In this document: one piece after another, positions 37,105 through 64,000 of the stretch | Numbering within the stretch: the first letter of the stretch is position 1 | How the letters are laid out: each line of letters begins with the position of its first letter | Assembly: GCA_039803205.1 (NCBI GenBank) | Contig: JBDRYB010000003.1 | Coordinates: forward strand, 4,999 to 68,998 | Length of the DNA: 64,000 nucleotides | Direction: 5' to 3' | From: a candidate division WOR-3 bacterium | GTDB lineage: Bacteria; Hydrothermota; Hydrothermia; JBDRYB01 | Notes under the pieces: model-generated | The model's database searches: none | What the model saw: only the letters and a program-made list of their open reading frames with translations | What the model was told of the DNA's origin: nothing | Program-made: the position numbers and the translations under genes

Positions 37105-38634
37105 ATGTTTGGTATTGGAATCGTATTGTTCTCTGCTCTTTTCGCTAAGACATACGGAGGGACTTACTCGGAGGAAGGCTATTCTGTGATCCAGACCCAA
37201 GAAGGAGACTATATCTCGGTGGGATATGTTGTGGATGGCTATGTTGACTTTTCGGTCATCAGGTTTTCCTCCGATGGTTCTCTCTCTGATGCAAAGAGGT
37301 TCGGCGGGAGCGGTTGGGATGAGGCCTATTCCGTAGCCGCGACTCAAGACGGCGGGTTTGTTGTGGCAGGAGAAACTGGTAGTTTCGGGGTCAGTGGCTT
37401 TGATTTTCTCGTTATGAGAATGGCTTCTGATGGCTCACTCATTTGGTCCAAGACTTACGGGGCCGCATACATGGAGCACCCATACTCAATAATCCAGAAC
37501 TCAGACGGGGGTTATACCGTTGTGGGAGAGACGAACAGCATCGGCGCAGGTTTTTCCGATTTTCTGGTTCTCAGATTGGGATCCGACGGTTCAGTTCTCT
37601 GGGCAAGAACCTTCGGGGGCGAAAACGAAGAGGAGGCTTGGTCTGCAATTGAGACCCCGGATGGAAGGCTTGTTGTCGCGGGATGGACGGATAGCTATGG
37701 GGCTGGCAACGATGATCTGCTAATCCTCAAGCTGAACCCTGACGGCTCCCCCATTTGGACCAAGACCCTGGGTGGCATTGGAGATGAGCGCGCCTTTTCC
37801 GTAGCCCAAGCTCATGATGGCGGATATGTTGTTGCTGGATGGACAGGGAGCTTTGGCGCCGGCGGAACAGATTTCCTGGTCGTAAAGCTCGGCCAGGATG
37901 GTTCGCTCATTTGGGCAAAGACCTTTGGCGGAAACAGAAATGACTGGGCCCAATCCATAGTTGCCACATCCGACGGGGGTTATCTTGTTTCTGGGACGAC
38001 ATTCTCCTTTGGGGCTGACTCATCGGATGCCCTGATGATCAAGCTTGGGCCGGATGGCTCACTCATCTGGGCCAGGAGGTTCGGGGGCCAGAGCTATGAC
38101 TATGCTTATTCCTCAACCCAGGCGCGGGACGGGGACTATGTTGTCGTTGGGACAACCTGGAGCTTTGGCGCTGGGGCATGGGATTTTCTCGTTATCAAGA
38201 TCGGCCAAAACGGCGAGTATGCGAACTGCGTTCAGGCCTGCTATCCGGTTTCTACCAATGTGAACCCCACGACATCCTCTCCGCTGATGGGCTTCATCTG
38301 CAATTTGGATGCCTCAAGCCCAACTCTGACACCAACCCCGCTCAATTTGATCGCATACGATATTTGCCCCACCCTGGCCTCTCAGGACACGAAAGGCTCT
38401 TCCGGAGGACCATGTTGCTTCGCTTTTTCGGAAGGCGCGGTGTTTTTCGCTCAGGAGCCGGGGAACCTCAGGCTGTATTCCACGGACGGAAGGCTTATAT
38501 GCTGTAGGCACCTAGAAACTGGCTACAACAGGATAACCCTTAAGCCCGGCGTCTATATCTGGAGAGCGAGTTCAGAACCTACATCATCCAATTCAAGGGC
38601 ATGCACGGGAAGAATTGCCATCCCCTCTCGGTAA
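37105..38634 (+). CDS. SBBP-like beta-propeller repeat protein with T9SS-type C-terminal domain (array family member, distal copy)
   Basis: N-terminus LFAKTYGGT; about 50-aa repeats (TFGG...DxAxS...DGGYxxxGxTxSFGAGxxDxLxxKL...G...W); C-terminal GVYIWRASSE...RIAIPSR. Confidence 0.6.
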   Translation: MFGIGIVLFSALFAKTYGGTYSEEGYSVIQTQEGDYISVGYVVDGYVDFSVIRFSSDGSLSDAKRFGGSGWDEAYSVAATQDGGFVVAGETGSFGVSGFDFLVMRMASDGSLIWSKTYGAAYMEHPYSIIQNSDGGYTVVGETNSIGAGFSDFLVLRLGSDGSVLWARTFGGENEEEAWSAIETPDGRLVVAGWTDSYGAGNDDLLILKLNPDGSPIWTKTLGGIGDERAFSVAQAHDGGYVVAGWTGSFGAGGTDFLVVKLGQDGSLIWAKTFGGNRNDWAQSIVATSDGGYLVSGTTFSFGADSSDALMIKLGPDGSLIWARRFGGQSYDYAYSSTQARDGDYVVVGTTWSFGAGAWDFLVIKIGQNGEYANCVQACYPVSTNVNPTTSSPLMGFICNLDASSPTLTPTPLNLIAYDICPTLASQDTKGSSGGPCCFAFSEGAVFFAQEPGNLRLYSTDGRLICCRHLETGYNRITLKPGVYIWRASSEPTSSNSRACTGRIAIPSR

Positions 38635-42450: not shown

Positions 42451-42613
42451 AAAAACCTCCTGTGCCTTCATATTATAAAAGCACCAGTTGATCCCGCGCA
42501 ATAGGATCGCCCCCCGGTTTATGATCTCAAAGAAAGCATAAATGAGCCCTCATGGAAGAGCTCAACGAGACCGAGATAATGAAGAGGAACCCGAAGGACA
42601 CTGAAACCAGGGA

Positions 42614-51226: not shown

Positions 51227-52813
51227 CTATTCTCCGAAGGCTCTCTTTCTAAGTCTTCTGTAGTATTGCCTGTATTCATCAATGTAACGGTCATAAGGAA
51301 ATTCAGGCAAGAGATCGTCCACTGCTAGCTCCCGGGCCTTTGCCAGAAGCGATTCTTTTTCATCCTGCTCATGGGACGATTCGGATCTGACAACCAAGTT
51401 TTCCAGCTCGGAAAGGTCTGTCCAGACATCGCCCTCAAGCTGGTAAAAATCGTGCTTGTGCACAATGAGAACATTTCTATCAAGGACCCTCCTGGCAAAG
51501 GATACTGCCTGATAAAGCAGTTCCCGGTTCTTCCTGTCATATCTCTTTCTAGGCCAGAGGAGGTAGAAGAGATGATCCGCAGCTATCCTGTGTTTTGAGG
51601 ACAGCAGGAGATAAATAAGAAACAAGGCTGATTTTCTGCTTCGCCATTCCAGAGGTTTTATTTCTTTCCCCTCCACATATATTCTTAGCTTTCCAATGAG
51701 ATAAGCCCTGATGCCCTTGTCTTTGTAGCTCTCTGATATTCCCGTCACCATAGGTTCCACCCTCAAGATGAACTCTCCGAGAATGGGGTCCTTTTTGGAA
51801 TTAGGATATAGGGGGATGAGGTGGCCTATGAGTTTCAAAGATTTGGTAAAGACAGGGCTATCAGTTTCCCAGGCCAAATAGGCGGCAGTAAGGCCCGAGA
51901 AAAAGGCTTCTGTGTTCTGATAAGCCTTAATATAATTGTTCGTGGCCTCCAAAAGACCTTCTGCGGTTTCCAGATCACTTTCCTTAAGAAGTGCTTCGGC
52001 CTCTTGGGCCGCGGCTTGTTCAGCCCAGGCTCCCTTTCTTGCGAGTTTTATTGCTTTCCTTATGAGCGCTTTGGGCGGCGGCTCAAGTCCTGTAAGCCGA
52101 GAGATCTCAAGGGCCTTGGCCAGAGGGACAATTGCATAGACCGAACCAAAACTCAGATGCCCCTCAGCGGATTTCATAAAATAAACTATACTCTCGCGAA
52201 GCTCTCCTGCTATTCTCAAACAGATGGCTTTAATTTCCTCCAGGACGCAATAAAAGATGCCCTTCTTTTCACTTCTCATAAGCGCATCGGTCATCCTAAT
52301 GGCTTTATGTGGGTTTCCGAAAAATAACTCATATATTATCAGATAATATTGAGCGGTTACGAGACGAATATCTCTGAGTTTCCCTTTGGATTTGATGCGG
52401 GACACCTCACTAAAACAATCGCGGTATTTGCCTTTCATAAAAAGGATGTGGCAAAAAGCAAGAGAAATTGCGTCTTGTGAATCTTCATCACCCAGCTCTT
52501 GGGCGATATCTAGCGCTCTAAGATAATACCTTTCAGATAATTCCAGTTCTCCCAAATCTACATACGCGTTGCCCATCAACCTCAAAAGGTAAAGAGTTGA
52601 AGCAGGATCATCACTGAGACGACTGAGAAGCTGTTGACCCTTCTTGATGGTCTGAGTAAACATATTTTTGTTGATACATATCCCCACATTAGCCAAGGCA
52701 AATGCTAAGGGATCATCCCTTTTGAGCCGCTCTAAATAGGCAACAAGCTTGTAGCTCATGCCTTCTAGCATGAACATCATGACAGCCTTCTTGGCCTTCT
52801 CGGCTCTGGTCAT
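51227..52813 (-). CDS. TPR-repeat protein with C-terminal OmpR/SARP-type winged-helix + BTAD-like segment (putative regulator)
   Basis: TPR-like helices; LRIYVEGKEIKPLEWRSRKSALFLIYLLLS...LFYLLWP...YQAVSFARRVL resembles trans_reg_C/SARP wHTH. Confidence 0.4.
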   Translation of the reverse strand: MTRAEKAKKAVMMFMLEGMSYKLVAYLERLKRDDPLAFALANVGICINKNMFTQTIKKGQQLLSRLSDDPASTLYLLRLMGNAYVDLGELELSERYYLRALDIAQELGDEDSQDAISLAFCHILFMKGKYRDCFSEVSRIKSKGKLRDIRLVTAQYYLIIYELFFGNPHKAIRMTDALMRSEKKGIFYCVLEEIKAICLRIAGELRESIVYFMKSAEGHLSFGSVYAIVPLAKALEISRLTGLEPPPKALIRKAIKLARKGAWAEQAAAQEAEALLKESDLETAEGLLEATNNYIKAYQNTEAFFSGLTAAYLAWETDSPVFTKSLKLIGHLIPLYPNSKKDPILGEFILRVEPMVTGISESYKDKGIRAYLIGKLRIYVEGKEIKPLEWRSRKSALFLIYLLLSSKHRIAADHLFYLLWPRKRYDRKNRELLYQAVSFARRVLDRNVLIVHKHDFYQLEGDVWTDLSELENLVVRSESSHEQDEKESLLAKARELAVDDLLPEFPYDRYIDEYRQYYRRLRKRAFGE

Positions 52814-53119
52814 GGGAATAGTTTAGAGATAGAGAACGATCAGAATCAAGTCGGAGAAGCTCCTTCGTCCGCACTCAACATTAGATTTGCAGAGCATTCA
52901 CAAGGAACGCACCGGTTCTGTTTCAGCTCTGTTTCAGTTGATTCCGTAAATATAGGCCCGTATGCACGGAGGCATAGAATAATGCAGATAACCTTGTTGG
53001 CAGCTCCTCAGACATGGAACGGTTGATATGGCTCCAAACAAACATGTATGCCTCCACTGCCCCAAACGGAGCAATGGTAGGCTTGTTCACCCCTGCAATC
53101 TCGCGGCAAGCGAGAACGG

Positions 53120-53188
53120 GATAAGCTTTGACTCTGGCGTCTATCTCTGGCACGCAGGGCCATATAAAGGAAAGGCAGTAGTGAGATG
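53120..53188 (+). pseudogene. Relic 3' fragment of an SBBP/CTD family gene (frameshifted; ends ...GVYLWHAGPYKGKAVVR*)
   Basis: At 53135-53188 the sequence ggcgtctatctctggcacgcagggccatataaaggaaaggcagtagtgagatga is near-identical to the array 3' ends; upstream similarity decays out of frame. Confidence 0.55.
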
Positions 53189-53197
53189 AAAACTATA

Positions 53198-53254
53198 GAC
53201 CGGCTCCGGAACCTGCTCACCTCCTATTATGCCGGAGCCGGCCTATTTTTCTTT
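53198..53254 (+). terminator. Rho-independent terminator-like hairpin after the relic
   Basis: gaccggctccgg (22-nt loop) ccggagccggcc followed by ctatttttcttt. Confidence 0.45.
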
Positions 53255-53283
53255 GAAAACGAAAACAACCTGGAGATTTTATC

Positions 53284-54822
53284 ATGAACAACTTGCTGTT
53301 AGCTGTCATGGTTTCGCAGAACCTCTTCGCGAAGACCTATGGAGGGACGGGTAAGGAGTATGCCTATTCGGTAGCCAGGACCTCGGATGGCGGATATATA
53401 GTCGCTGGGGGCACGGCCAGCTACGGTGCTGGACAGGATGACTTCCTGGTCATCAAGATCTCGCCCACAGGAACCCCTGAATGGACAAGGACCTTCGGGG
53501 GAACAAATATGGATGCCGCCTATTCCATAATCCAGACAACCGATGGGGGATATATGGTTGCTGGGGAAACCCGCAGTTTCGTGGCGGGAACCGCTGCTAA
53601 CATTGATTTTCTTGCGCTGAAGATCTCATCCACCGGAAACCCTGAGTGGGCAAGGACCTTTGGAGGAGCAAATGAGGATTTCTGTCGATCCATAATCCAG
53701 ACATCAGATGGGGGATACGCACTTGTAGGGTTCACCAGAAGCTATGGTGTTGGGCTGGATGACTTTTTGATCATCAAAATCTCGTCTGCTGGGGCCCTTG
53801 AATGGGCAAAGACATTCGGCGGAACGAATTATGATAATGCCTTCTCCATAGTACAGACCATAGACGGTGGTTATGTCGTTTCGGGTAGCACCATGAGCTT
53901 CGGGGCCGGCTACTGGGACCTTCTCTTGCTAAAGCTGTCGCCCACGGGAACCCTTGAGTGGGCGAGAACCTACGGGGGAGAAAATAATGACTTTACTACC
54001 TTACCCGTGATACATACCGCTGACAGTGGTTTCATGTTCACGGGGCACACGGAGAGCTTTGGGGCCGGTGAAGCGGATCTGCTTGTCATGGAACTTTCGT
54101 CCACCGGGGCTCCGGAGTGGACAAGAACCTTCGGAGGAACCGACTTGGATTGCGCTCGCTCTATAACCAGAACCGGGGATGGAGGGTTCGCGCTCGCAGG
54201 ATGGACATTGAGTTTTGGGGCTGGTTCTTGTGATTTCTTCATGATAAAGATTTCGTCCGCAGGAAGCCTTGAATGGGCAAGGACTTTCGGAGGGGAAGGT
54301 TGGGACGATCCCTTCTCTATGATCCAGACTCAGGATGGCGCCTACACGGTTGCAGGATGGACAACGGGCAGTTTTGATGGAAGTGACCCTGGCGATTTCC
54401 TTGTGATCAGGCTTGACCAGAACGGCAATTACCTGGATTGCATTCAGAGCTGTTCTCCTACCACAGGGCCAGCTTCCATTTCAATATCATCCCCTGGCGC
54501 GGACCTTATTCCCTGTAATCCTTCTATAACCAACCCGAATCCAAGCGTCACGACTCCCGGACTTCAGGTATATGATGTCTGTCCACCCAGTTCTATTGAG
54601 GAGCCAGACAAAGTCCAAACATGGCCCCAGATCATTTGCGTATCTGATATAAGAGGGGTTATTTTCCATGCTTCCGGGGAAATGGAGATAAAGATCTACT
54701 CATCCGATGGAAGGCTGTTCTGCTCCGAACAACTGCAGAGGGGACAGACCTCCATTCCTCTTGGCCAAGGAGTCTATCTCTGGCAAGCAGGACCCTATAA
54801 AGGAAAGGCTGTTGTAAGATGA
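53284..54822 (+). CDS. SBBP-like beta-propeller repeat protein with T9SS-type C-terminal domain (array member)
   Basis: MNNLLLAVMVSQNLFAKTYGGT N-terminus; about 50-aa repeats; Cys/Pro/Thr linker; C-terminal IPLGQGVYLWQAGPYKGKAVVR. Confidence 0.65.
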   Translation: MNNLLLAVMVSQNLFAKTYGGTGKEYAYSVARTSDGGYIVAGGTASYGAGQDDFLVIKISPTGTPEWTRTFGGTNMDAAYSIIQTTDGGYMVAGETRSFVAGTAANIDFLALKISSTGNPEWARTFGGANEDFCRSIIQTSDGGYALVGFTRSYGVGLDDFLIIKISSAGALEWAKTFGGTNYDNAFSIVQTIDGGYVVSGSTMSFGAGYWDLLLLKLSPTGTLEWARTYGGENNDFTTLPVIHTADSGFMFTGHTESFGAGEADLLVMELSSTGAPEWTRTFGGTDLDCARSITRTGDGGFALAGWTLSFGAGSCDFFMIKISSAGSLEWARTFGGEGWDDPFSMIQTQDGAYTVAGWTTGSFDGSDPGDFLVIRLDQNGNYLDCIQSCSPTTGPASISISSPGADLIPCNPSITNPNPSVTTPGLQVYDVCPPSSIEEPDKVQTWPQIICVSDIRGVIFHASGEMEIKIYSSDGRLFCSEQLQRGQTSIPLGQGVYLWQAGPYKGKAVVR

Positions 54823-54874
54823 GATTCTCTACACCAGACCAAGAGGCGAGTAGCTTCCGGGATATGCTTTACAA

Positions 54875-56164
54875 TCATTCCCCTGGATTCAGGACGATCG
54901 TCCTCGTATCCACTATATTTCCATGAGATGAGAGGGCCAGGAAGCAAACGCCCTTACCTATGCCATCAAGGCTAATGGAGTGCCTTCCGGGTTCAAGAGA
55001 CCAGGTTCTCAGTTCCCTGCCAATAGGATCATAAGCTGTCAGTTGGCCTGCCTTGGTAAGCCTGATTTCAACGGAAACAGTAGAGAGCATAACGATGCTG
55101 TTCTCCTTTGGCCCTGAACTCTCTCCAATCTCAAGGGGAGGGCATCCTCTGTGCGCGTAGTAGAGATCGCCAGACCTGTAATATGCTATCCTGGGGCAGT
55201 CATCTGAGCCCACCTGAAGGCTCCTGTCTGTCATCCAGTAACCTGCCCATGTATTGGGGTCAGCAACCTCTATCGTCCAAGATGATCCATTCCACACAGC
55301 ATATTTTAGCCTCTGGTTGGTCACATCGTAGTAGGCTATGTGCGGCCTGTCCTGGGAATCCAGGGCCAAAGAGGTATAACGCCCGACATCGCCCGCGGTG
55401 TCAACCGTCTGTATCTGCCAGGATGAGCCGTTCCAGTAGGCGTATTTGAGGTCCCGCTTGGCCGCTGATGAATCGTAGTAGGATATGTGGGGCCTGTCCT
55501 GGGAGTCAATAGCGATGGATGTCCAGAGGCCAACGGATCCAGCTGTGTCAACCTTCTGGGTCTGCCAGGATGAGCCATTCCAATAGGCGTATTTTAGATC
55601 ACGAGCACTGGCCCCGAAGCTGTAATAGGCTATGTGAGGCCTGTCTTGGGAATCCAGAGCCAAAGAGGTGCAAATCCCCAGTATATCTACCTGCTGTAGC
55701 ACCCATGCCGAGCCGTTCCAGTAGGCATACTGAATTATGCTGTAGCCATTATCAGAATAGGCTATGCACGGTCTATCCAGAGAATTAAGGGCCAGAGATG
55801 TCCAGAGCGTATTCCCTACGGTATCAACAGTCTGTCTCTGCCACGAGGAACCGTTCCAGTAAGCATACTTGAGATCCGAGTTCACGCCGTCTATCCAGTA
55901 GCTGTATGAGATGCACGGCCTATCCTGGGAATCCAGGTCCACAGAGACATAGCCACCAGAGGCGCTCCCTATGGTGTCAACCCTCTGCGTCTGCCACCCT
56001 GAGCCGGCCCATCTCGCGTATTTCACGCCATATGTTGTGAAATCGCAGTAGGCTATGTGCGGCCAGTCCTGAGAGTCCAGAGCCAGGGCCGCGTAGTAGC
56101 CAACATCTCCAGGCGCGTCCACCTGGAGCCAGCTCCACTGAGCTAAAAAGAGCCATACCATCAT
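54875..56164 (-). CDS. Secreted protein with about 8 novel ~47-aa repeats (KYAYWNGSSWQxQTVDTxGxVGxYTSLALDSQDRPHIAYYD)
   Basis: Start trimmed to MMVWLF with GGAGG SD; beta-propeller-like periodicity; C-terminal region ...GKGVCFLALSSHGNIVDTRTIVLNPGE. Confidence 0.5.
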   Translation of the reverse strand: MMVWLFLAQWSWLQVDAPGDVGYYAALALDSQDWPHIAYCDFTTYGVKYARWAGSGWQTQRVDTIGSASGGYVSVDLDSQDRPCISYSYWIDGVNSDLKYAYWNGSSWQRQTVDTVGNTLWTSLALNSLDRPCIAYSDNGYSIIQYAYWNGSAWVLQQVDILGICTSLALDSQDRPHIAYYSFGASARDLKYAYWNGSSWQTQKVDTAGSVGLWTSIAIDSQDRPHISYYDSSAAKRDLKYAYWNGSSWQIQTVDTAGDVGRYTSLALDSQDRPHIAYYDVTNQRLKYAVWNGSSWTIEVADPNTWAGYWMTDRSLQVGSDDCPRIAYYRSGDLYYAHRGCPPLEIGESSGPKENSIVMLSTVSVEIRLTKAGQLTAYDPIGRELRTWSLEPGRHSISLDGIGKGVCFLALSSHGNIVDTRTIVLNPGE

Positions 56165-56356
56165 CTTAAAAACCTCCTCGTTTAAGGTTTTTGTTTTCAA
56201 GGGAAACACGGGCTGACCGGAGGTCGTTCTGAAGAACGAGCCGTTCCGGCCGATACCCCTGTATTTTCTCGCACAGGGTCGCGGCAAACACGATCATTCC
56301 CAGCATAATCCCAGTATGAATTATCACGAATGGGTTTGCGAGCCTTTCCCTTATAT

Positions 56357-57883
56357 TCATCTCACAACCGCCTTTCCTTTATATGGCCCTGCCTGCCATA
56401 GATAGACGCCAGGATCAAGGGGGATGCGGGTTTGGCCCGCGATTAGATGTGTTGAAGAGGACAGGCGGCCATCCGGAGAATATATTTTCAATTCGGCCTC
56501 AGCTGTCGCATTGAAAATGAGAGCATGGGAAACTGGAAAACAGATCACTTCTGCGTCAAACCCGGCAGTCTCATCAACGCTTTCATAGACAGGGGCACAG
56601 ATATTGACTGATAGTGGTGTAATTGGTGGCGTCACAGAAATACCGGGGGTTCCGGTGGAGTGAGTCCATGGGGATGGGGACACGGAAAGATTTGAGGTAG
56701 CAAAAGTGGGAGTGACGAGACCCGGAGATTGATCAAGCACACACCCAGAATAGGTTCCGTCTGCGGCTGTTCTAAGCAGAAACCCATCCCTTTGGTTAAA
56801 GTCAAAGGTGGTGCCAGCGATCGCAAGACTGCCATCCGGGAGCTGGAGGACAGAAAAAGCCCTCTCCCAACCTAAGGCATTGAATGTCTTTGTCCAAAAC
56901 AAACTCCCGTCGGCTGAGCTGAACTTCATGATCTGAGCCTCGTCCCCAAACGGAGGTAGAATTTTCGTTTTGCCCACGACCACGAACCCTTCATCTGCCG
57001 TTTGGATTATGGAGTTGCCAATTTCCTGTACGCCTGTCGTTGTTTTTGCCCAGGAAAGGTTTCCAAGAGAGTTTGTCCTGATAACCATAAGTCTTGGTAT
57101 ATCCGCGAGATCAGGATCCGTCGCACCGGTTATGGCAAATCCACCATCCGAGGTTGGGACTACGGATAGGCCCACATCAAATATTGAATGATTTCCGTCA
57201 ACCATACCGTAGAAGGCTTTTGCTCTTCCTACGGATCCATCGGGGTTCAATACCAGTAACAGGGTGGCATTCTCTAAGGTAAAATCAATGTATTCCCCGG
57301 TAAAAACATAGCCGTCATCGTATGTCTGGGTCATGAATACATCCTGGGCCCGTGTATTGTATGACTTAGCCCAGCTTTCGTTTCCGGCCGCGGTAAGCTT
57401 GAGAAGCAGTATATTGGAATTATCAGACCCTCCTACTGCGTATCCCCCGACCCCTGGGGTCTCAATTACGGACCTGGCTTCTTCCCAACCCGAGGTTCCA
57501 AAGGTCTTCGCCCATGAAATATTTCCATCCTGATCCAGCCTCAGTACGAGCATATCTCTTGAACCAGCGCCGAAACTCTCTGTGTAACCAGCTATAACAA
57601 AGCCTCCGTCATCTGTGCATATCACAGACCAAGCGCCGTCATTATTTGCTCCTCCGTATGCCTTGGCCCATTGGATATTTTTGCCATCCGAGGTTAACAC
57701 AACGAGTAAAGCATCCGTGCCTCCGGCACCATAACTATTCGTTGTTCCCGCCAACGCAAAACCTCCACTGCCAGGCATCCGTGCCACGGAGTAGATGTAT
57801 TCATCACCCGTTGTCCAACCATAAGTTTTAGCAAATAGCGTCAAGGCCACAAGCACATCCATCATTATAAAGAGCCCTGTCAT
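56357..57883 (-). CDS. SBBP-like repeat protein with T9SS-type C-terminal domain (array member)
   Basis: LFAKTYGWT N-terminus, repeats, C-terminal IPLDPGVYLWQAGPYKGKAVVR. Confidence 0.65.
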   Translation of the reverse strand: MTGLFIMMDVLVALTLFAKTYGWTTGDEYIYSVARMPGSGGFALAGTTNSYGAGGTDALLVVLTSDGKNIQWAKAYGGANNDGAWSVICTDDGGFVIAGYTESFGAGSRDMLVLRLDQDGNISWAKTFGTSGWEEARSVIETPGVGGYAVGGSDNSNILLLKLTAAGNESWAKSYNTRAQDVFMTQTYDDGYVFTGEYIDFTLENATLLLVLNPDGSVGRAKAFYGMVDGNHSIFDVGLSVVPTSDGGFAITGATDPDLADIPRLMVIRTNSLGNLSWAKTTTGVQEIGNSIIQTADEGFVVVGKTKILPPFGDEAQIMKFSSADGSLFWTKTFNALGWERAFSVLQLPDGSLAIAGTTFDFNQRDGFLLRTAADGTYSGCVLDQSPGLVTPTFATSNLSVSPSPWTHSTGTPGISVTPPITPLSVNICAPVYESVDETAGFDAEVICFPVSHALIFNATAEAELKIYSPDGRLSSSTHLIAGQTRIPLDPGVYLWQAGPYKGKAVVR

Positions 57884-57924
57884 GTTAAAGCCTCCGTATG
57901 GTTTTTGTTTTCAAAGCAAATGCA

Positions 57925-57970
57925 GGCCGGCCGGGTTTTAACGGGAGGTGCAGAGATCCCCGGCCGGCCC
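57925..57970 (-). terminator. Conserved intergenic GC hairpin (ggccggccggg / cccggccggcc) flanked by T/A-rich tracts, followed by GGAGG SD of next gene
   Basis: Same element at 59533-59579 and 61155-61200; lies between the stop of the upstream gene and the start of the downstream gene. Confidence 0.45.
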
Positions 57971-57977
57971 TTTGTTT

Positions 57978-59492
57978 TCATCTTACCACTGCCTTTCCTT
58001 TATATGGCCCCGCTTGCCACAGATAGACGCCGGGATCAAGGGGGATGCGGGTTTGGCCCTTCTTGAGCTCCCCGGAGTAAGCGAGACGGCCATCGGCTCC
58101 GTATATCCTTAAATCAATATCTTCCCATAGGCTAAAAAGAAGGCCTCCGGAAACAAGAGAACAGGTTATCCTGTCTTTCAACACTGCGGCCTCGTTTTCT
58201 CGTGCGTCAAGGGGGGCACAGAGATCTGTCACAATGAGTGTGGGCGCAGTTATTACTGGGCTTGCAGCTCCCATGGACGGGATATAATTCACTCCCACAG
58301 AACGGGAAGAAGTGTTCGGAGACCAGGCATTGATAGAGGGCGAACAAGAGCTCACACATCCAGGATAATCCCCATTACCGTCCACCTTTAGGAGGAGAAA
58401 TCCTTGATCAACATACCCCATAATAGCAAGATCCCCATCCTGGGTTGGAATTATGCAATTAGCGCCATCATCGCTTGATGTCCCAAAGGTTCTGGCTCCC
58501 AAAAGGTTTCCAGAAGCATCCAGCTTGACAACGAAGAAATCCTCACCACCTATACCAAAACTCTTCGTACCTCCAGCGATCACGAGATCGCCATCCTGAG
58601 TCTGCATTATAGATCTCCCGTCATCGTCGTTCACGCCACCTATGGTTTTGGCCCAAGAAAGAGAACCATCCGAAGCTAGTTTGAGCACGAAGAGATCATG
58701 CCCTCCAACACCGGAGCTCTGTGTATGTCCTGTGATTACAAAGCCGCCGTCAAAGGTCTGGATTATAGCTGTGGGACAACCTGGCTCTTCATCGCTTGAA
58801 CCCCCAAAGGTCCTAGCCCATATGGGAGAACCATTTGAGTTCAACCTGAGTATAAGTAAATCACTGCCGCCCACGGTAAAACTTCTTGTCCATCCTGCGA
58901 CCGCAAAACCGCCATCTGTTGTTTGAACTATGGAGTGGGCTATGTCTTGATTTGTTCCCCCATAGGTCCAGGCCCACATAAAGTTCCCATTCGCATCCGT
59001 CTTGAGCACAAAGAAATCGTAACTCCCAGCGCCGGAACTGGAAGTGAATCCAGCCACCACAAGACCGTTGTCCGCAGTTAAGACTGCAGAGTGAGCCTGA
59101 TCATATCCGTCTCCGCCGAAGGTCTTATACCACTGAAGGTCGCCGCTGGAATTAAACTTGGAAATAAAGAGGTTCTCATCTCCAAAGCTATATGTCTCGC
59201 CCACGATCGCGAACCCGTTGTCACTGGTCTGAACTATGCAGTGACTGTGATCGAATCTGGTCCCTTGTATTACCTGGGCCCAAGTTATGTTTCCGGATGG
59301 GTTCATTTTGAACACTAGGCAATCCGTACCATCTCCAAGCCCAAGATCAATCGGTCTCGTAACCAAGTAGCCACCATCAGTGGTTTGGATGACAGAGCCT
59401 GCGTAGTATTCAATGCCCGTCATGTCTTCTACAGACCTAGCGAACTTACCCTGCGCCAAGAGCGCGCTTGTGGTGATAAAAAAGCATGTCAT
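57978..59492 (-). CDS. SBBP-like repeat protein with T9SS-type C-terminal domain (array member)
   Basis: Repeats TFGG...DGGFxIxGxTxSxG.GGxDxFVxKL; C-terminal IPLDPGVYLWQAGPYKGKAVVR. Confidence 0.65.
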   Translation of the reverse strand: MTCFFITTSALLAQGKFARSVEDMTGIEYYAGSVIQTTDGGYLVTRPIDLGLGDGTDCLVFKMNPSGNITWAQVIQGTRFDHSHCIVQTSDNGFAIVGETYSFGDENLFISKFNSSGDLQWYKTFGGDGYDQAHSAVLTADNGLVVAGFTSSSGAGSYDFFVLKTDANGNFMWAWTYGGTNQDIAHSIVQTTDGGFAVAGWTRSFTVGGSDLLILRLNSNGSPIWARTFGGSSDEEPGCPTAIIQTFDGGFVITGHTQSSGVGGHDLFVLKLASDGSLSWAKTIGGVNDDDGRSIMQTQDGDLVIAGGTKSFGIGGEDFFVVKLDASGNLLGARTFGTSSDDGANCIIPTQDGDLAIMGYVDQGFLLLKVDGNGDYPGCVSSCSPSINAWSPNTSSRSVGVNYIPSMGAASPVITAPTLIVTDLCAPLDARENEAAVLKDRITCSLVSGGLLFSLWEDIDLRIYGADGRLAYSGELKKGQTRIPLDPGVYLWQAGPYKGKAVVR

Positions 59493-59532
59493 GATGAAAC
59501 CTCCGTATGGTTTTTGTTTTCAAGGCAAATGT

Positions 59533-59579
59533 GGGCCGGCCGGGTTTTAACGGGAGGTGCAGAGATTCCCGACCGGCCC
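59533..59579 (-). terminator. Conserved intergenic GC hairpin element (copy 2)
   Basis: gggccggccggg ... cccgaccggccc, with one mismatch relative to the other copies. Confidence 0.45.
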
Positions 59580-59586
59580 TTGGTTT

Positions 59587-61113
59587 TCATCTCACAACCG
59601 CCTTTCCTTTATATGGCCCTGCCTGCCATAGATAGACGCCAGAATCAAGGGGGATGCGGGTCTGACCTTTTTCCAGGTTATCTGAGATGGCCACGCGGCC
59701 ATCGGCCGAGTAGAGCTTTATGGGCAGGGCCTCGTTGGATACGAAGAGAACACCACCGGTGACCGGCGAACAGGTTATCCAGCCATGAGAGCCAGGATTG
59801 ATCTCCTCAACATGCTCGTAAAGGGGCTGGCAGACATCGGTTACTGTCGGCGCGGAAGCCGTAGTGATGAAATCCAGGTTTGTGGTGGTATGAGTCCAAG
59901 CGGGAGCAGAGATACTGAGATCTGGCGTCAGAAAATCGGGGGTCCCCAGGGGCGGCACCTGATCAACTACACAGTCGGAATAATCCCCGTTTCCGTCCAT
60001 CTTCAGAAAAGCAATATCATGCTCTCCGACGGGAATGTTGAATGTGTTTCCCGCGACCGCGAACCCCCCGTCCGGTGTCAGAATTATGGACTGGGCGTGG
60101 TCATCAACAGTCGCGTTGAAAGTCCTGGACCACAGGACGCCACCGGTTACATTGTCCATTTTCATGATCAGGAAATCATTGTTCATGGTTCTTGTGTGCC
60201 CTGCGGCCACGAGTCCCCCGTCCGAGGTCTGGACTATGGATGTGGCGTAATCGTGTATGCCTGTCGCTACCGTTGCCCAGGAGAGATCACCGTCGGAATC
60301 TGTTTTCATGACCATAAACATCGGCAGATCCCCCACGAAATTGCCTACTTCCGTTATGCCAGCGACCGTAAAACCCCCATCAGAGGTCTGGATTATGAAG
60401 TTGCCCTGATCAGCCCAGGTGTGAAGTCCGCCAACCATCCCAAAAAAGAACCTCGTCCAGAGGACAGACCCATCCGGATTCAGCCTAAGGATAGGGATGG
60501 CATTATCGCTGTATATCGCGTCTTCATAGATCACCCCCGTGATAGCATATCCGCCATCGCTTGTTTGAACTATGGAATAGGCCTCTCCTAACCATCCCGG
60601 CCCATAATAATATCTTGCCCAGTTCGTATTTCCATCAGCGTCAAGCCTGAGGGCAATCAGGTTATTACCCCATGCCCCTATGGCATAGCCTCCGTCCGTG
60701 GTTCTGATTATGGAGCGCCCCTCCTCGTAGGTCGCTCCTGCTCCATAGGTCTTTGCCCAGGATAGGTCTCCGTCAGGTTCCAGCTTGAGAACCAATATGT
60801 TCCTTCTTGGGCCAGCATAACGCGTGGTGCCTCCGGTGACGACAAACCCGCCATCTGTCGCCTGGACTATGGAATATCCCACATCAACGCTTGTGTCGCC
60901 GTATGCCTTGGCCCACACGAGGTTCCCGTTCGGATCCAGCCTGATGACCAAGACATCATCTCCACCAGCGCCAAACGCCTGCGTGGTTCCGGCGAGCGCG
61001 AACCCGCCGTCCGTGGTCTGGACCACGGAGTAGATGTAGTCATCGCCTGTCCATCCATAGGTCTTCGCGAAAAGGTTCTGCGAGACCAGCACAGATACTA
61101 TTAAGGTGTTCAT
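59587..61113 (-). CDS. SBBP-like repeat protein with T9SS-type C-terminal domain (array member)
   Basis: MNTLIVSVLVSQNLFAKTYGWT N-terminus, near-identical at the nucleotide level to the 53284 gene 5' end; C-terminal tail conserved. Confidence 0.65.
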   Translation of the reverse strand: MNTLIVSVLVSQNLFAKTYGWTGDDYIYSVVQTTDGGFALAGTTQAFGAGGDDVLVIRLDPNGNLVWAKAYGDTSVDVGYSIVQATDGGFVVTGGTTRYAGPRRNILVLKLEPDGDLSWAKTYGAGATYEEGRSIIRTTDGGYAIGAWGNNLIALRLDADGNTNWARYYYGPGWLGEAYSIVQTSDGGYAITGVIYEDAIYSDNAIPILRLNPDGSVLWTRFFFGMVGGLHTWADQGNFIIQTSDGGFTVAGITEVGNFVGDLPMFMVMKTDSDGDLSWATVATGIHDYATSIVQTSDGGLVAAGHTRTMNNDFLIMKMDNVTGGVLWSRTFNATVDDHAQSIILTPDGGFAVAGNTFNIPVGEHDIAFLKMDGNGDYSDCVVDQVPPLGTPDFLTPDLSISAPAWTHTTTNLDFITTASAPTVTDVCQPLYEHVEEINPGSHGWITCSPVTGGVLFVSNEALPIKLYSADGRVAISDNLEKGQTRIPLDSGVYLWQAGPYKGKAVVR

Positions 61114-61154
61114 GTTAAAGCCTCCGTATGGTTTTTGTTTTCAAACAAAATGCA

Positions 61155-61200
61155 GGCCGGCCGGGTTTTAACGGGAGGTGCAGAGATCCCCGGCCGGCCC
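61155..61200 (-). terminator. Conserved intergenic GC hairpin element (copy 3)
   Basis: Identical stem to copy 1. Confidence 0.45.
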
Positions 61201-61207
61201 TTTGTTT

Positions 61208-63331
61208 TCATCTCACAACCGCCTTTCCTTTATATGGTCCCGCTTGCCAGAGATAGACGCCAGGATCAAGGGGGATGCGGGTTTGGCTAGGTCCTAGGAG
61301 TCCGGAGAAAAATAACCTGCCATCAGGGAGATATAGTCTAAGGAGGCTCTCTTTTTCGGAGGCAAAGATTAGCCCACCGGATACAGGAATACAAGTTATC
61401 CCTCCGGGGTGGTTATACGGATCATCTTGATAGTAATCCATCGGGGAGCATATACTTAAGGTGCTTAGACTAACAGAAGTCATAGAGGGTGCTATCGTGA
61501 CGACATATGGTGTGTATGACTTTCCTGTGTTAACATTCTCATCTACGACAGGTATATTTGTGAGGGTAGCCTGTTGCCAGTCCATAATACAGCCCGCGTA
61601 ATCCTGACTCGCATTTACCTTTAGTACGAGCAGGTCGTAGCTAGAGGCATAGCTATTAGAGTATCCCAGAACAGCAAATCCTCCGTCGTCGGTTATAGAT
61701 ATACTCAAGGATATGTCCGAGTTTGCCCCACCAAGCTTTTTGACCCATAGGAGGTTGCCGCCGCCGTCGATCTTAATTATGAAGATGTCATCGCTAAGAC
61801 CCGAGAAAGAGCCAGTTACTATAAGATTGTCACCGTCTACACTAGTAGACCCATACACATTGGTAGCAGAGAGATATTTTGCCCAGATGGGGTCACCCAC
61901 GGCATTCGTTCTAAGTATAACCACATAAGGGCTTCCGGTATTCATCTCGCCGGTAAATATGTATCCCCCATCCGGCATCTGAGCTATATCCACCACGCCC
62001 TCTTGGTATGAGCCAAAATCATAAGTTTTTATCCATTCGGTAGCGCCAGATGAGCTAAGCTTAACCACGAAGAAGTTCCAGGGGTTCGAACCGAAATATC
62101 TCGTATATCCTCCGAGGATATAACCCCCGTCGCTTGTTTGCCTTATTCTCCATAGTCCATCGTGATTGCTTGATCCGAAGGCCCGAGCCCATTCTATATT
62201 GCTGTTTTGATCCGGCTTGTAGATAGCTCCATCCCAGCATCCGTAGCCCCAATCATCGGACCACACAGAACCGCCATCGCTGGTAAGGATAAGCGAGTTG
62301 CCGTTGCTTCCGCCCGTTGGCCCGAATACCTTTTTGCTCCATATGTGGTTCCCGGAAAGATCGTAACGGAAAAGCCAAGCATCCCATGTGCTCGTTGAAG
62401 TGTTCCAGAGATAACCGGCCGCTGTAAGATTTCCGTCAGAGGTTTGCACGATCCCCCTCACATAGTCCGCGCCAGCCGCGCCAAGAACCCTTGTCCAGAT
62501 TTGATTTCCTGAGGCGTCAAACCTGGAGATCATTGCGTCGCCGTTTCCGACGCCCCAGCTATCGGTTCTGCATCCTACCACAAAGCCATCGTCTGATGTC
62601 CGAGTTACATTTGGAAAGATGTAGTCATCGTTTGGGCCCCCTATTGTTCTGTTCCAGAGCAGATTACCAGATTTGTCAAACCTGCAGATGAGGGTTTCCC
62701 AGCCTCCCGCACCTACTCCGGTTATACTACCGACAGCAACTACCCCGCTATCGGGTGTTGCTGCTATTCCGCGTCCTTCAGCTGCTTGGCCCGATAGGCC
62801 TATACATCTCGTCCATTGATGGTTCCCTGCCGAGTCAAGCTTTACAACTATAAGGCTACTGAAGGTACTGGGACCAAAGCTCCACGAGCTCCCGACTATA
62901 GCAAAGCCATTATCGGCGGTTTTGATAATGCCACCCGCTTCATCAGCGTTAGTGCCTCCAATTGTTTTTGCCCAAAGAAGATTCCCGTTGGGATCAAGCT
63001 TGGCTATCAGAATATCGCGGTTGCCAGCACCCCATAAGGATGTGTAAGCGGTCACCGCAAAGCCGCCATCGGATGCTAGGGTCATGTATGAGCCCCAATC
63101 ATTTGGGCCACCCTCTATCATCCTGCTCCAAATATGATTTCCCAGGCTGTCAAACCTAGAGACTATGGAGCCATAGCCAAAGCTTATTGCGTGTCCGGAT
63201 AAGGCGTAACCATTGTCAGGGGTCTGGACGACCGAGAATGCCCTATCGTAATTTGTCCCCCCGAGAACACTGATGAAGTTAACCTGTTGCGCTTGGCTTA
63301 TCCCCGTAATGAACAGCATAACCTTTTTCAT
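61208..63331 (-). CDS. Large SBBP-like repeat protein (707 aa) with T9SS-type C-terminal domain (array member)
   Basis: About 12 repeats (GGxxxDxxxxIxxTxDGGxxxxGxTxSxG); C-terminal IPLDPGVYLWQAGPYKGKAVVR. Confidence 0.6.
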   Translation of the reverse strand: MKKVMLFITGISQAQQVNFISVLGGTNYDRAFSVVQTPDNGYALSGHAISFGYGSIVSRFDSLGNHIWSRMIEGGPNDWGSYMTLASDGGFAVTAYTSLWGAGNRDILIAKLDPNGNLLWAKTIGGTNADEAGGIIKTADNGFAIVGSSWSFGPSTFSSLIVVKLDSAGNHQWTRCIGLSGQAAEGRGIAATPDSGVVAVGSITGVGAGGWETLICRFDKSGNLLWNRTIGGPNDDYIFPNVTRTSDDGFVVGCRTDSWGVGNGDAMISRFDASGNQIWTRVLGAAGADYVRGIVQTSDGNLTAAGYLWNTSTSTWDAWLFRYDLSGNHIWSKKVFGPTGGSNGNSLILTSDGGSVWSDDWGYGCWDGAIYKPDQNSNIEWARAFGSSNHDGLWRIRQTSDGGYILGGYTRYFGSNPWNFFVVKLSSSGATEWIKTYDFGSYQEGVVDIAQMPDGGYIFTGEMNTGSPYVVILRTNAVGDPIWAKYLSATNVYGSTSVDGDNLIVTGSFSGLSDDIFIIKIDGGGNLLWVKKLGGANSDISLSISITDDGGFAVLGYSNSYASSYDLLVLKVNASQDYAGCIMDWQQATLTNIPVVDENVNTGKSYTPYVVTIAPSMTSVSLSTLSICSPMDYYQDDPYNHPGGITCIPVSGGLIFASEKESLLRLYLPDGRLFFSGLLGPSQTRIPLDPGVYLWQAGPYKGKAVVR

Positions 63332-63348
63332 ATTAGAACCTTTGAAAC

Positions 63349-64000
63349 CTACTTGCTTAAGGTGAAGCTTACTTTAAGTCTCTTGTTCTCATGCTCCACC
63401 AGGGCAACATAAAGCCCCTTTCTCAGCTCGAGGCTCAGCAAGTTCTCTCCCGGCGAAAGCCTCGTTTCCTTTGAGATAACTAGACAGCCAACGGGGTCAT
63501 ATATCCTTATCCTGGCTTCGCCGCCCCTCTGTGAAACAACATGAAGGTTGTTCCCAGAGAACCAAGCCTTTGGCCCGGATTCCAACTGAGGAGTCTCTTC
63601 TGATTCTTCGTAAACTGGCCCACAGCCGGCTCCCGGTGCGTCTATGATCCACAGGTTTCTATTTGTTCCTGGGCCAGCCAGGGTTATCTCAGAACACCCG
63701 TCCCCATCCGTATCCCCTATGGTCACATCATGCCCATCAGAACAGTAGGGAGCCTCAACCTTCCACTGCTTCGCGCCGCTTTCCCCAGCGAGGCAATACA
63801 CCCACCCCGGATATGTCTGAGCGATGACCTCCCAGCGTCCGTCGCCATCAATATCCGCAATAGCAACGCCCCTGTGGACATCTCCGGCCAGGGTATCCGA
63901 GCGCCAGATCACATTGCCATCATATCCCCTGAAGCAGTGAACGCGATCATAGAGGTCTGGAGCAGTGCTTGCTGATCCGCCTGACCCTATAACAACATCG
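63349..64000 (-). CDS. FG-GAP/VCBS-like repeat protein with T9SS-type C-terminal domain (5' end runs off window)
   Basis: IADIDGDGRWEV and GDTDGDGCSEI FG-GAP-like loops; the reading frame stays open upstream of the annotated GTG to the window edge (DVVIGSGGS...). Confidence 0.5.
   Translation of the reverse strand, partial: DVVIGSGGSASTAPDLYDRVHCFRGYDGNVIWRSDTLAGDVHRGVAIADIDGDGRWEVIAQTYPGWVYCLAGESGAKQWKVEAPYCSDGHDVTIGDTDGDGCSEITLAGPGTNRNLWIIDAPGAGCGPVYEESEETPQLESGPKAWFSGNNLHVVSQRGGEARIRIYDPVGCLVISKETRLSPGENLLSLELRKGLYVALVEHENKRLKVSFTLSK

Follow-up and report, generated by a model that had tools for sequence, protein, structure and literature searches.

The 64-kb window analysed here, a stretch of DNA from a metagenome-assembled genome (MAG) of a candidate-division WOR-3 bacterium, contains an array of genes that arose by ancient duplication, with other propeller types (BNR_4-like and FG-GAP) interspersed, and we consider it likely that these diverged propeller genes are joined by nearly identical junctions that are kept uniform within the genome and exchanged at a 94-nt intergenic element, here called J, which is the best-conserved piece of the array. 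The overall pattern is of an already known kind, the sole new element being the uncharacterised hairpin. As the original prediction stated, five family ORFs (g1-g5) are found at 53284-63331 and a sixth (g0) at 37105, all with repeats of about 50 amino acids (Table 1).

Table 1. Features of the array and its surroundings (positions in the window)
Feature	Position	Strand	Description
g0	37105..38634	+	509 aa, dispersed paralogue; without J
TPR-repeat protein	51227..52813	-	528 aa; divergently transcribed array neighbour; C-terminal region winged-helix/BTAD-like
Orphan 3' tail	53128..53189	+	62 nt, DSGVYLWHAGPYKGKAVVR and stop; no gene body upstream
J upstream of g1	53190..53283	+	hairpin 53200-53241, stem CCGGCTCCGG/CCGGAGCCGG, A-rich spacer, GGAG; covariance model 61.8 bits
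g1	53284..54822	+	512 aa, family member
gB	54875..56164	-	BNR_4-like 47-aa-repeat protein; CTD tail differs from that of the family
Small ORF	56166..56360	-	64 aa, hydrophobic stretch
g2	56357..57883	-	508 aa, family member
J between g3 and g2	57884..57977	-	hairpin 57924-57970; covariance model 62.3 bits
g3	57978..59492	-	504 aa, family member
J between g4 and g3	59493..59586	-	hairpin 59533-59579; covariance model 62.1 bits
g4	59587..61113	-	508 aa, family member
J between g5 and g4	61114..61207	-	hairpin 61154-61200; covariance model 63.3 bits
g5	61208..63331	-	707 aa, longer family member; signal peptide differs (MKKVMLFITGISQA)
FG-GAP repeat protein	63349..63912	-	CTD-like tail; directly upstream of g5

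The family proteins begin with a short signal peptide, which is followed by a 7-bladed DUF5122/delta-60 propeller, then by a linker and finally by a C-terminal beta-sandwich. The propellers had been assigned to the SBBP type (PF06739), for which a Pfam search returned no match; the family instead matches PF17164 and TIGR02608, with PF17164 above the cut-off in g0-g3, just below or below it in g4 and g5, and g0 the strongest DUF5122/delta-60 match. The likeness to DUF5122 (PF17164)/delta-60 (TIGR02608) propellers consists of the ~50-aa repeats and the 7-bladed model: the predicted structure of g4 (pLDDT 88.2) has a 7-bladed propeller at about residues 15-372 and, after a linker, a 7-strand beta-sandwich at 445-508, and its top PDB match is the CylK propeller (7roo, E 1.7e-18, 21% identity), although the array proteins carry no sign of the CylK N-terminal domain or of CylK chemistry. 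When the C-terminal domain (CTD) was modelled alone (pLDDT 85.7), the top PDB matches were the RgpB CTD (5ag8, 7pq4), and the RemA CTD (8gl6_D) was also matched; against 5ag8 the TM score was 0.64 and the rmsd 2.3 Å, with weak fold E-values (9e-3). What the array CTDs share with T9SS type A CTD cargo (RgpB of Porphyromonas gingivalis and RemA of Flavobacterium johnsoniae; TIGR04183/PF18962) is a 7-strand beta-sandwich of about 65 residues ending a secreted protein, a likeness known from the fold, whereas the sequence models are not reached: TIGR04183 gave 16.4 bits on g4, below its cut-off of 23, and PF18962 matched only 2 of 30 CTDs (best E 0.0024). Of the T9SS CTD proposed originally, the TIGR04183 assignment thus fell short in the sequence search, and a T9SS-type CTD is supported only at the level of the modelled fold, which is closest to RgpB and RemA. 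CTD tails sit on differing N-terminal domains, and a related WOR-3 contig (L017) carries a SprA-like gene.

In a self-BLAST of the window, nucleotide similarity was confined to the gene junctions. The ends of the genes, all of which had been described as nearly identical, are so at the 3' side of g2-g5, where the tails are 89-96% identical over 82-91 nt; the g1 tail is 79-82% identical to the others, and g0 showed no nucleotide-level similarity to family members, ends included. At the protein level g2, g3 and g5 end in IPLDPGVYLWQAGPYKGKAVVR and a stop, with DS for DP in g4 and GQ in g1. The description did not hold for the first ~60 nt, over which g2-g5 have a mean identity of 0.47 and the N-termini of g3 and g5 differ; only g1/g4 (similar 5' ends, run test, global p 0.003) and g2/g4 (about 86% identical over a 275-nt stretch including tail and J) are alike. 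In a codon alignment, mean identity was 0.45-0.54 along the bodies versus 0.82 in the last ~85 nt, and codon identity at columns with identical amino acids was 67-92% in the tails versus 25-41% in the bodies (Fisher p 0.017 to 1.5e-7), the random expectation being 0.34.

The propeller bodies are old paralogues with saturated synonymous sites and orthologues in another WOR-3 genome. They are 29-44% identical in amino acids, their codon identity at identical residues (0.25-0.47) lies around the random level, and a simple NJ tree of bodies paired g1 with F16, a gene adjacent to the putative regulator in L016 (94% bootstrap, 65% body identity), g2 with f3 (100%, with g4 as sister, 100%) and g3 with f4 of L012 (100%, 56% body identity). 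A single recent segmental duplication, after which the bodies diverged fast under diversifying selection and the ends stayed unchanged, would suit genes that are tandem, co-oriented, of similar length (504-512 aa) and joined by near-identical junctions; it is refuted by the saturated synonymous sites and by the well-supported orthologue of each paralogue lineage in another genome, and we give it almost no credence.

The junctions, on the other hand, evolve in concert, in that copies of J, and likewise tail synonymous sites, are closer to their counterparts elsewhere in the genome than to those at orthologous positions of a second genome. J copies are 88-98% identical among the three minus-strand copies of the window, 87-95% within one L012 subtype and 62-78% between genomes, and tail codon identity is 0.67-0.92 within the window, 0.69-1.0 within L012 and 0.50-0.68 between genomes, a within-genome excess that rests on 16-25 codons per pair. 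Because the bodies are saturated and have cross-genome orthologues while J and tail synonymous sites group by genome, concerted evolution of the junction module is supported. According to these data the homogenised unit comprises the 94-nt J and the preceding ~80 nt at the 3' end of the coding sequence, and not both gene ends; in L012 it extends to signal-peptide codons as well (head codon identity 0.44-0.93, highest for f4-f5 and f5-f6). The tail and J of g1 are not homogenised with the other copies, g1's J being 72-73% identical to the other three. When conversion tracts were sought by run length, the test was marginal on the tails (global p 0.06), and no mosaic tracts were found in the gene bodies of the codon alignment. 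Exchange between paralogues is supported at the junctions; diversification of surface proteins through shuffling of the central repeats, as originally proposed, is not shown.

Part of this conservation has a simpler basis. The motifs ...SQNLFAKTYGG... and ...GVYLWQAGxYKGKAVVR recur across many WOR-3 genomes, and such family-wide amino acid conservation of both ends reflects purifying selection on the signal peptide and the CTD and is not evidence of gene conversion. The tails are 80-90% identical in nucleotides between genomes, almost equal to the 87-92% within genomes, so much of the tail conservation is constraint, and between-genome codon identity also exceeds the random level. It is nevertheless improbable, in our judgement, that purifying selection alone, acting on the signal peptide and sorting domain encoded by the ends and on a J that serves as terminator and ribosome-binding site (RBS), accounts for the junctions with no exchange between paralogues. 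Although the hairpin is under structural selection, its stem bases vary freely between genomes in a compensatory manner, yet they are identical in three adjacent copies of the window and near-identical within L012 subtypes; J copies cluster by genome, and synonymous identity is greater within a genome than between orthologues. In addition, the non-coding orphan tail, which has no family ORF 5' of it, is still 87-92% identical to functional coding tails, and dispersed paralogues named for the same MAG (the ABIM74_ series) carry different tail peptides.

Each junction runs from the last ~80 nt of CTD codons through the stop, 5-7 nt, the hairpin, a variably U-rich stretch, an A-rich spacer and GGAGG to the next ATG. 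J contains a 12-bp GC hairpin with a GCACCUCCCGUU loop, followed by the A-rich spacer and the RBS; the hairpin is very stable and GC-rich (about -29 kcal/mol) and the loop 5'-GCACCUCCCGUU-3' is conserved, a conservation that is partly circular as later copies were collected by patterns containing the motif, while those found through protein similarity are independent. The three minus-strand copies share a derived stem, GGCCGGCCGGG/CCCGGCCGGCC, whereas g1's J keeps the L012-type stem. When 16 pairs were examined in 33 distinct copies, 89.8% of the cells were paired, compared with 75.8% in shuffles and 30-53% in slid controls, and both-side changes occur at 13 of the 16 pairs; none of 500 shuffles reached the observed values. 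Compensatory substitutions thus preserve the hairpin, whose G-U pairs lie on the sense strand; the covariance model gives 61-63 bits for that strand against 21-26 bits for the antisense strand and, in the window, matches only the four array copies. About 26 of 38 distinct hairpin copies start 3-13 nt past the stop of a gene ending in ...GKAVVR, ...KTVKVVR or ...SLKIVR, which ties the hairpin to gene 3' ends that encode CTD-type tails. T residues average 4.4 in the 10 nt following the stem, versus 1.6 before it. Loop and Shine-Dalgarno sequence do not covary, g1 having GGAGA with an unchanged loop.

J copies are also the end points of an eight-gene presence/absence difference between two strains of a related species, which documents recombination at the junctions there. 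The flanks of L012 and L016 are 98.9% identical, and nine genes in L012 stand against one in L016; the difference is a 12.8-kb block of eight genes with both ends in J copies. The single J of L016 matches J0 of L012 through the hairpin and J8 after it, and two markers separated by 2 nt place the switch at the 3' hairpin foot. Array order and orientation also differ between species. Repeats of this size can mislead assemblers, and chimeric joins at the repeated junctions would make the array order, the inverted g1 segment or the strain difference unreal. Pointing that way, the window corresponds to a MAG, contigs from two further WOR-3 MAGs are broken precisely within the tails, and the orphan tail is, over 63 nt, a 90% identical inverted repeat of the g2 tail. 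We regard such an artefact as very unlikely: the independent assemblies L012 (ENA) and L013 (JGI) are 100% identical over 13,128 nt of array, the J copies of the window differ from one another by SNPs, and J0 and J8 share no identical run above ~18 nt while the record names (k141_...) suggest a far longer k-mer, from which a spurious join in L016 appears unlikely.

A further explanation sees in J, or in the hairpin alone, a small element that is mobile or site-specific (REP/MITE-like, or an integron-like recombination site), inserts after CTD genes and mediates excision and insertion of cassettes. It would account for co-oriented cassettes from different families with the same hairpin between them, for an eight-gene block bounded by J copies and switching at the hairpin foot, for the hairpin-less short junctions of L015, L093 and L096, for the genome-specific stem and loop variants, and for the 10-nt direct repeat TGAAAACAAA that flanks the hairpin in the window copies (p<0.005). 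We nonetheless consider it rather unlikely, since no general target-site duplication was found over 38 copies (mean longest flanking repeat 4.9 nt versus 4.4 nt in shuffles), neither the ten array-adjacent proteins tested nor the called genes of L012 and L016 included an integrase or transposase, no attC-like R'/R'' cores were seen, the stems are perfect and lack extrahelical bases, and all four copies of the window lie within the array; ordinary recombination between ~73-95% identical repeats can explain the block difference. That within-genome uniformity reflects recent spread of such an element, and not gene conversion, is likewise rather doubtful.

In the favoured explanation of exchange between paralogous junctions, neighbouring junctions would be homogenised through gene conversion of short tracts or through unequal crossing-over, and the CTD end, held constant by selection, may seed the process. 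On the transcript, the hairpin could keep cassettes apart, either by partial termination or by stabilising 3' ends, and the fixed stop-to-hairpin distance together with an anti-Shine-Dalgarno-like loop might couple each gene's translation to the RBS of its downstream neighbour.

Conserved-end surface paralogues with gene conversion are known from babA/babB and other Hop genes of Helicobacter pylori. These have near-identical terminal segments and divergent middles, the ends providing homology for intragenomic recombination, and their copy number or arrangement varies between strains, as in the array. In the array, by contrast, homogenisation centres on the intergenic junction (the 3' end and 94 non-coding nt) instead of both coding ends, the genes are tandem, no mosaic middles were found, and the host is an uncultured WOR-3 bacterium. 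The REP/BIME elements, repetitive extragenic palindromes of enterobacteria, resemble the hairpin as stable GC-rich palindromes just 3' of stop codons between co-transcribed genes, with species-specific sequence variants and an association with rearrangements. The J hairpin, however, has a 19-28-nt loop with a conserved motif, is tied to one gene class (CTD-bearing secreted proteins) with only four copies in 64 kb, all in the array, and showed no associated transposase among the array-adjacent proteins and the called genes of L012/L016. Integron gene cassettes are bounded by attC sites. Here too, co-oriented cassettes of different genes are bounded by an array-uniform hairpin element, in which cassette blocks present or absent between strains have their end points, but no adjacent integrase, R'/R'' core sites or extrahelical bases were found, the RBS of the following gene lies within J, and the array cassettes are mostly paralogues.

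The remaining genes show how the array is embedded. g2 is 100% identical to NCBI protein ABIM74_00860 from a candidate division WOR-3 MAG. The ATG of the 64-aa small ORF, likely encoding one membrane helix to judge from its sequence, overlaps the g2 stop codon (ATGA), and the 3' half of J and then gB follow, an arrangement also kept in L005. gB had been thought to keep the intergenic element, but upstream of it J is represented by no more than its 3' ~45 nt, the small ORF replacing the hairpin part. The gB start at 56164 (MMVWLF) is backed by an upstream GGAGG and by alignment with its L012 orthologue f8 (76% amino acid identity). A 17-nt spacer without J separates the FG-GAP gene from g5, and the FG-GAP protein resembles f7 of L012 and a 531-aa ORF of L096 with a near-identical tail. 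The 528-aa TPR protein, whose sole domain hit is TPR_12, below the Pfam cut-off, is a putative regulator by its sequence motifs, and its homologues adjoin family genes or arrays in L012, L016, L017, L093, L094 and L111.

The ORF calls recovered the five array paralogues (g1-g5) and the sixth, dispersed one at 37105 (g0), as the original prediction had them. The g2 protein is 100% identical to NCBI ABIM74_00860 from a candidate division WOR-3 metagenome-assembled genome, and an exact-protein look-up with g4 and with the protein P0043 matched no contig.

Features of the array and its surroundings, in window positions
Feature	Position	Strand	Basis or remark
g1	53284-54822	+	ORF, delta-60 family paralogue
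g2	56357-57883	-	ORF, delta-60 family paralogue
g3	57978-59492	-	ORF, delta-60 family paralogue
g4	59587-61113	-	ORF, delta-60 family paralogue
g5	61208-63331	-	ORF, delta-60 family paralogue
g0, sixth paralogue	37105-38634	+	ORF
gB, BNR_4-like gene between g1 and g2	54875-56164	-	domain search
64-codon ORF between g1 and g2	56166-56360	-	ATG overlaps g2 stop codon
FG-GAP protein gene, directly upstream of g5	63349-63912	-	
528-aa TPR-repeat protein, divergent from g1	51227-52813	-	
J (intergenic element), three copies	57884-57977, 59493-59586, 61114-61207		
J, fourth copy	53190-53283		upstream of g1
Orphan tail, 62 nt	53128-53189		precedes g1's J; no gene body upstream

The repeats had been taken for SBBP domains, an identity that the profile searches did not sustain: none of the six proteins matched PF06739 at E<=0.01, NF047494 (Lepto_SBBP_lipo) gave partial matches only (19-73 bits versus a cut-off of 400), and the repeats match PF17164 (DUF5122) and TIGR02608 (delta-60) instead. 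Against PF17164 (cut-off 27), g0 (90.8 bits), g3 (36.2), g1 (30.1) and g2 (27.3) score above the cut-off and g4 (26.6) and g5 (18) below it; g0 alone passes TIGR02608 (105.8 bits, cut-off 76.5), the remaining family proteins reaching 28.9-54.4 bits. In the AlphaFold model of g4 (pLDDT 88.2) a 7-bladed propeller is joined through a low-confidence linker to a C-terminal beta-sandwich (CTD) of 7 strands. The 28 strands in residues 15-372 form 7 blades of about 50 aa each, as in a beta-propeller fold, and the top PDB matches of this region are propellers, namely CylK (the best, 1.7e-18), Sec12, YncE and PLL lectins. The odd C-terminus of g0 is not a frameshift; it is a long-loop tail variant shared with the homologous proteins P0037 and P0070.

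The CTD had been assigned to the T9SS sorting type, and in the corresponding TIGR04183 search (cut-off 23) g4 gave 16.4 bits and the other family genes did not match. Of 30 family CTDs, 2 matched PF18962, with an E of 0.0024 at best, and the CTD profile returned nothing significant from the PDB sequences. The CTD modelled by itself (pLDDT 85.7) has seven strands, and in a PDB comparison the RgpB CTD occupied ranks 1-2 (5ag8, TM 0.64, rmsd 2.3 Å; 7pq4); the model also matches the T9SS-bound RemA CTD (8gl6_D, TM 0.64/0.66), with weak E-values for these fold matches (9e-3 to 9e-2). Because the sorting-domain HMMs missed the domain while its model matches the RgpB and RemA CTDs, we speak of a T9SS-type CTD by predicted fold only. 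A related WOR-3 contig (L017/L018) encodes an SprA_N protein of 1883 aa. Two other window proteins have sub-threshold Por_Secre_tail matches (41464-42501, minus strand, 24.1 bits; 46761-48245, minus strand, 22.8 bits; cut-off 27), and no J follows either gene.

Both ends of all six genes had been predicted to be almost identical in nucleotide sequence around diverging central repeats. Self-BLAST limited nucleotide-level similarity among the paralogues to the gene junctions. In a codon alignment of g2-g5 the bodies have an identity of 0.45-0.54 and the last ~85 nt of 0.82 (0.69 for g1 versus the others), whereas the first 60 nt reach 0.47, with similar 5' ends in g1/g4 and g2/g4 only; g0 has no DNA-level similarity to g1-g5. 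Near-identity therefore holds for the 3' ends of g2-g5, and neither for the 5' ends nor for g0. At identical residues, codon identity among g2-g5 is 67-92% in the last 26 codons versus 25-41% in the bodies, the random expectation being 34%. The 94-nt spacer J had been given too little weight in the original prediction: the three J copies that separate g2 to g5 are 88-98% identical to each other, and the copy upstream of g1 is 72-73% identical to these. The embedded gB, which was thought to keep the same intergenic element, is preceded by the 3' ~45 nt of J only. Nor did recombination-driven cassette diversification of the central repeats find support: sliding identity is flat in the gene bodies (0.34-0.54), shared tracts at global p<0.05 (g1-g4 and g2-g4) are confined to the opening ~90 nt of the alignment, and neither analysis found mosaic tracts inside the gene bodies. 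The motif AAAGGAAAGGC is invariant in all six tail copies of the window, the tail being the last ~80 nt of coding sequence.

The end peptides are conserved family-wide in many WOR-3 genomes, so their amino-acid conservation reflects selection and is no evidence of exchange. The decisive comparison was with L012, the syntenic locus of a related species (ENA). An assembly error behind the array pattern is an unlikely rival explanation; 13 kb of L012 is identical in the independent JGI assembly L013. L012 carries the putative regulator (the divergently transcribed TPR-repeat protein) followed by nine co-oriented genes (f1-f9): six delta-60 genes, one FG-GAP, one BNR_4, and f2, a propeller gene unrelated to the family and with a different tail. 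J is present ahead of the first gene and in 7 of the 8 junctions (f6>f7 lacks it), and it also follows non-family genes. The genes of the window and of L012 are not arranged in the same order and orientation, a sign of rearrangement. The bodies pair as orthologues across genomes, g1 with the family gene F16 of the strain locus L016 (94% bootstrap), g2 with f3 (100%) and g3 with f4 (100%), from which it follows that the paralogues are older than the split of the window genome and L012; these pairs exclude a recent duplication of the paralogues, including a single segmental one.

The junctions behave differently from the bodies. J clusters by genome: copies from different genomes are 62-78% identical, as against 88-98% in the window and 87-95% for those of one L012 subtype. 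A derived stem form is common to the three adjacent window copies, and g1's J keeps the L012-type stem. Synonymous identity of the tail is 0.67-1.0 within a genome versus 0.50-0.68 between genomes, and homogenisation in L012 extends to the signal-peptide codons of several pairs (0.44-0.93). These sequence comparisons show old paralogues with homogenised junctions, that is, concerted evolution of the junction module (J plus tail), measured quantitatively against one other genome; inspection by eye showed hairpin variants specific to a genome in the further contig sets L080, L111 and L081/L082/L102. The concerted evolution originally proposed for both gene ends is thereby confined to this module. 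Pure selection or constraint is an unlikely explanation for the uniform junctions, as paired changes in the stem are tolerated, yet the copies of an array have identical stem bases. We favour exchange, in which conversion over short tracts or unequal crossing-over of adjacent junctions would produce the uniformity and the selected CTD end may seed the exchange.

The tail itself was also compared between genomes. Its codon identity at identical residues, g1-g5 versus f1, f3, f4 and f5 of L012, is 0.50-0.68, above both the random value of 0.34 and the 0.38-0.50 of orthologous bodies, which points to a nucleotide-level constraint on the tail beyond coding or within-genome conversion.

Exchange at the junctions is also indicated at the strain level. 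L016, from another sample, is 98.9% identical to L012 in the flanks and contains a single family gene versus nine genes. Its sole J equals J0, the first L012 copy, through the hairpin, and J8, the last, from the foot of the 3' arm on; this chimera implies that recombination between J copies removed or added a block of eight genes (12.8 kb), a strain-level difference bounded by J. Neither the family nor the phenomenon is of a new kind; what is new is how the homogenised unit is defined, and the cross-genome and strain-level evidence for exchange. For the uncultured WOR-3 bacteria there is hardly any knowledge of how secreted proteins are built and varied. The locus presents a large secreted propeller family in arrays with uniform junctions, which in the related species are sites of whole-gene gain or loss between near-identical strains, a concrete mechanism for rapid repertoire variation.

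Changes within genes were seen as well. Between strains with ~99% identical flanks, f9 encodes 403 aa in L012 (19510-20721) versus 511 aa in L016 (10001-11536), an in-frame difference of 321 nt or two propeller blades; a 458-aa version also exists (P0104). In the f9 alignment the first ~490 nt (J and the 5' end of the gene) are 88.8% identical and the remainder 98.8-99%. On contig L093 (4716-6014), a BNR_4-like protein carries a delta-60-family CTD tail (GVYLWMAGQYKGKVVVR), and its counterparts gB and L012 f8 have a different tail, which suggests that CTD ends were swapped between protein families.

The hairpin in J was examined in 33 aligned, distinct copies, drawn from contigs of several samples as well as from the window. 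Of the cells of its 16-pair stem 89.8% are paired, where shuffling gives 75.8% and slid controls give 30-53%; double changes occur in 13 stem pairs, and G-U pairs lie on the sense strand. The covariance model built from this alignment (R1) has four matches in the 64-kb window, all in the array. Across 274 kb of related loci it has 37 sense-strand matches, and those that were checked lie at array junctions or at the ends of CTD genes. About 26 of 38 copies start 3-13 nt after the stop of a gene with a CTD-type tail; outside the window most copies are preceded by a CTD gene, and in one case (L017) the gene upstream, at a distance of 66 nt, is for OTCase. Covariation and placement together show a hairpin under structural selection that is linked to CTD genes. 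The hairpins are very stable (about -29 kcal/mol, with stems of 10-16 pairs), and a U-rich stretch follows half of the copies (19/38), with 5 T or more among the 10 nt after the stem. In the loop of 19-28 nt lies GCACCUCCCGUU, which is anti-Shine-Dalgarno-like; since later copies were collected with patterns containing the loop motif, only copies found by protein similarity are independent with regard to its conservation. Of the DNA patterns used, the stricter gave 65 matches in metagenomes, about 20 of them true hairpins, and the looser gave 49 in viral contigs, on inspection unrelated and not GC-stem hairpins. No Rfam 15 covariance model matched J at E<=1 (52800-64000), and the hairpin, an undescribed motif that accompanies CTD genes, is new; our literature search, confined to WOR-3 with T9SS and to delta-60 repeats, found no paper. 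R1 can be used to annotate CTD-type genes and to probe a regulatory or recombinational role.

Between cassettes the hairpin may work at the RNA level, terminating transcription in part or stabilising 3' ends, and, because J also precedes the first gene, it may attenuate transcription. A terminator consensus scan (loop 3-8) did not call the J hairpins because their loop is too long, and sigma-70 promoter and terminator scans gave no enrichment. The constant stop-hairpin distance of 5-7 nt and the anti-SD-like loop could couple the translation of successive genes, a coupling that no covariation backs: the Shine-Dalgarno sequence is GGAGA in g1 and GGAGC/GGAGA in L111/L069 with loops unchanged, so a covarying loop-SD pairing is unsupported. 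A peptide reading across J from the ATGA overlap was ruled out, as J is 93 or 94 nt long (CACCTCCGTT versus CACCTCCCGTT) and the frame is not conserved when lengths vary by 1 nt between copies.

J as a mobile or site-specific element is an unlikely rival to homologous exchange. A dispersed, REP-like palindrome would be expected at many unrelated intergenic sites, and in the 64 kb covered here J occurs in the array only. For a MITE, a target-site duplication is significant in the window copies only, and not overall. No recombinase was found among ten proteins tested beside the array or in L012 or L016, inspection of the J copies gave no GTTRRRY/RYYYAAC pair flanking the hairpin as in attC cores, and an integron cassette array was rejected on these grounds. 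We regard as improbable a reading in which the GCACCUCCCGUU-loop hairpin is a dedicated WOR-3 cis-element marking CTD-bearing secreted-protein genes, either for post-transcriptional control or for cassette exchange. As a control site it could be a 3'-end/leader element with a common bound factor or pair with the Shine-Dalgarno sequence of the next cassette; as an exchange site it could belong to a recombinase-independent or as yet unidentified system that assembles and reshuffles secreted-protein gene arrays, a counterpart in function of integron attC sites that does not resemble them.

Several smaller features accompany the junctions. L015 (1-75) has a junction without hairpin (TGA AAACCATGGAGG...ATG), equal to an L012-type J minus the segment between two GATGAA repeats, and spacers are only 19-35 nt in L096 and in part of L093. 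Contigs of two WOR-3 MAGs, QZM1.Bin.61 and KM4338-37 (L007-L011), begin exactly inside family tails, four of the KM4338-37 tails being near-identical to each other; such ends imply that the junction repeats break short-read WOR-3 assemblies exactly within these genes, which is of practical concern. Directly upstream of g0 is a lone gene for a phage portal protein (PF04860, E 5.5e-61; 35901-37043, plus strand).

The g5-g2 run of delta-60 family genes ends with g2, and the small ORF that follows begins at the ATGA overlap and encodes a hydrophobic stretch resembling one membrane helix. Its peptide (MxIxERLANPFVIxHTGIxLGMI...) is kept in the KM4338-37 MAG (L005, about 1640-1830), and a shorter, 31-aa analogue follows f9 in L012 (20718-20813) and the founder gene in L016 (11533-11628). 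The orphan tail and the g2 tail (56357-56437) form an inverted repeat of 63 nt with 90% identity, which brackets J and g1, gB and the small ORF; inversion would put g1 in tandem after g2.
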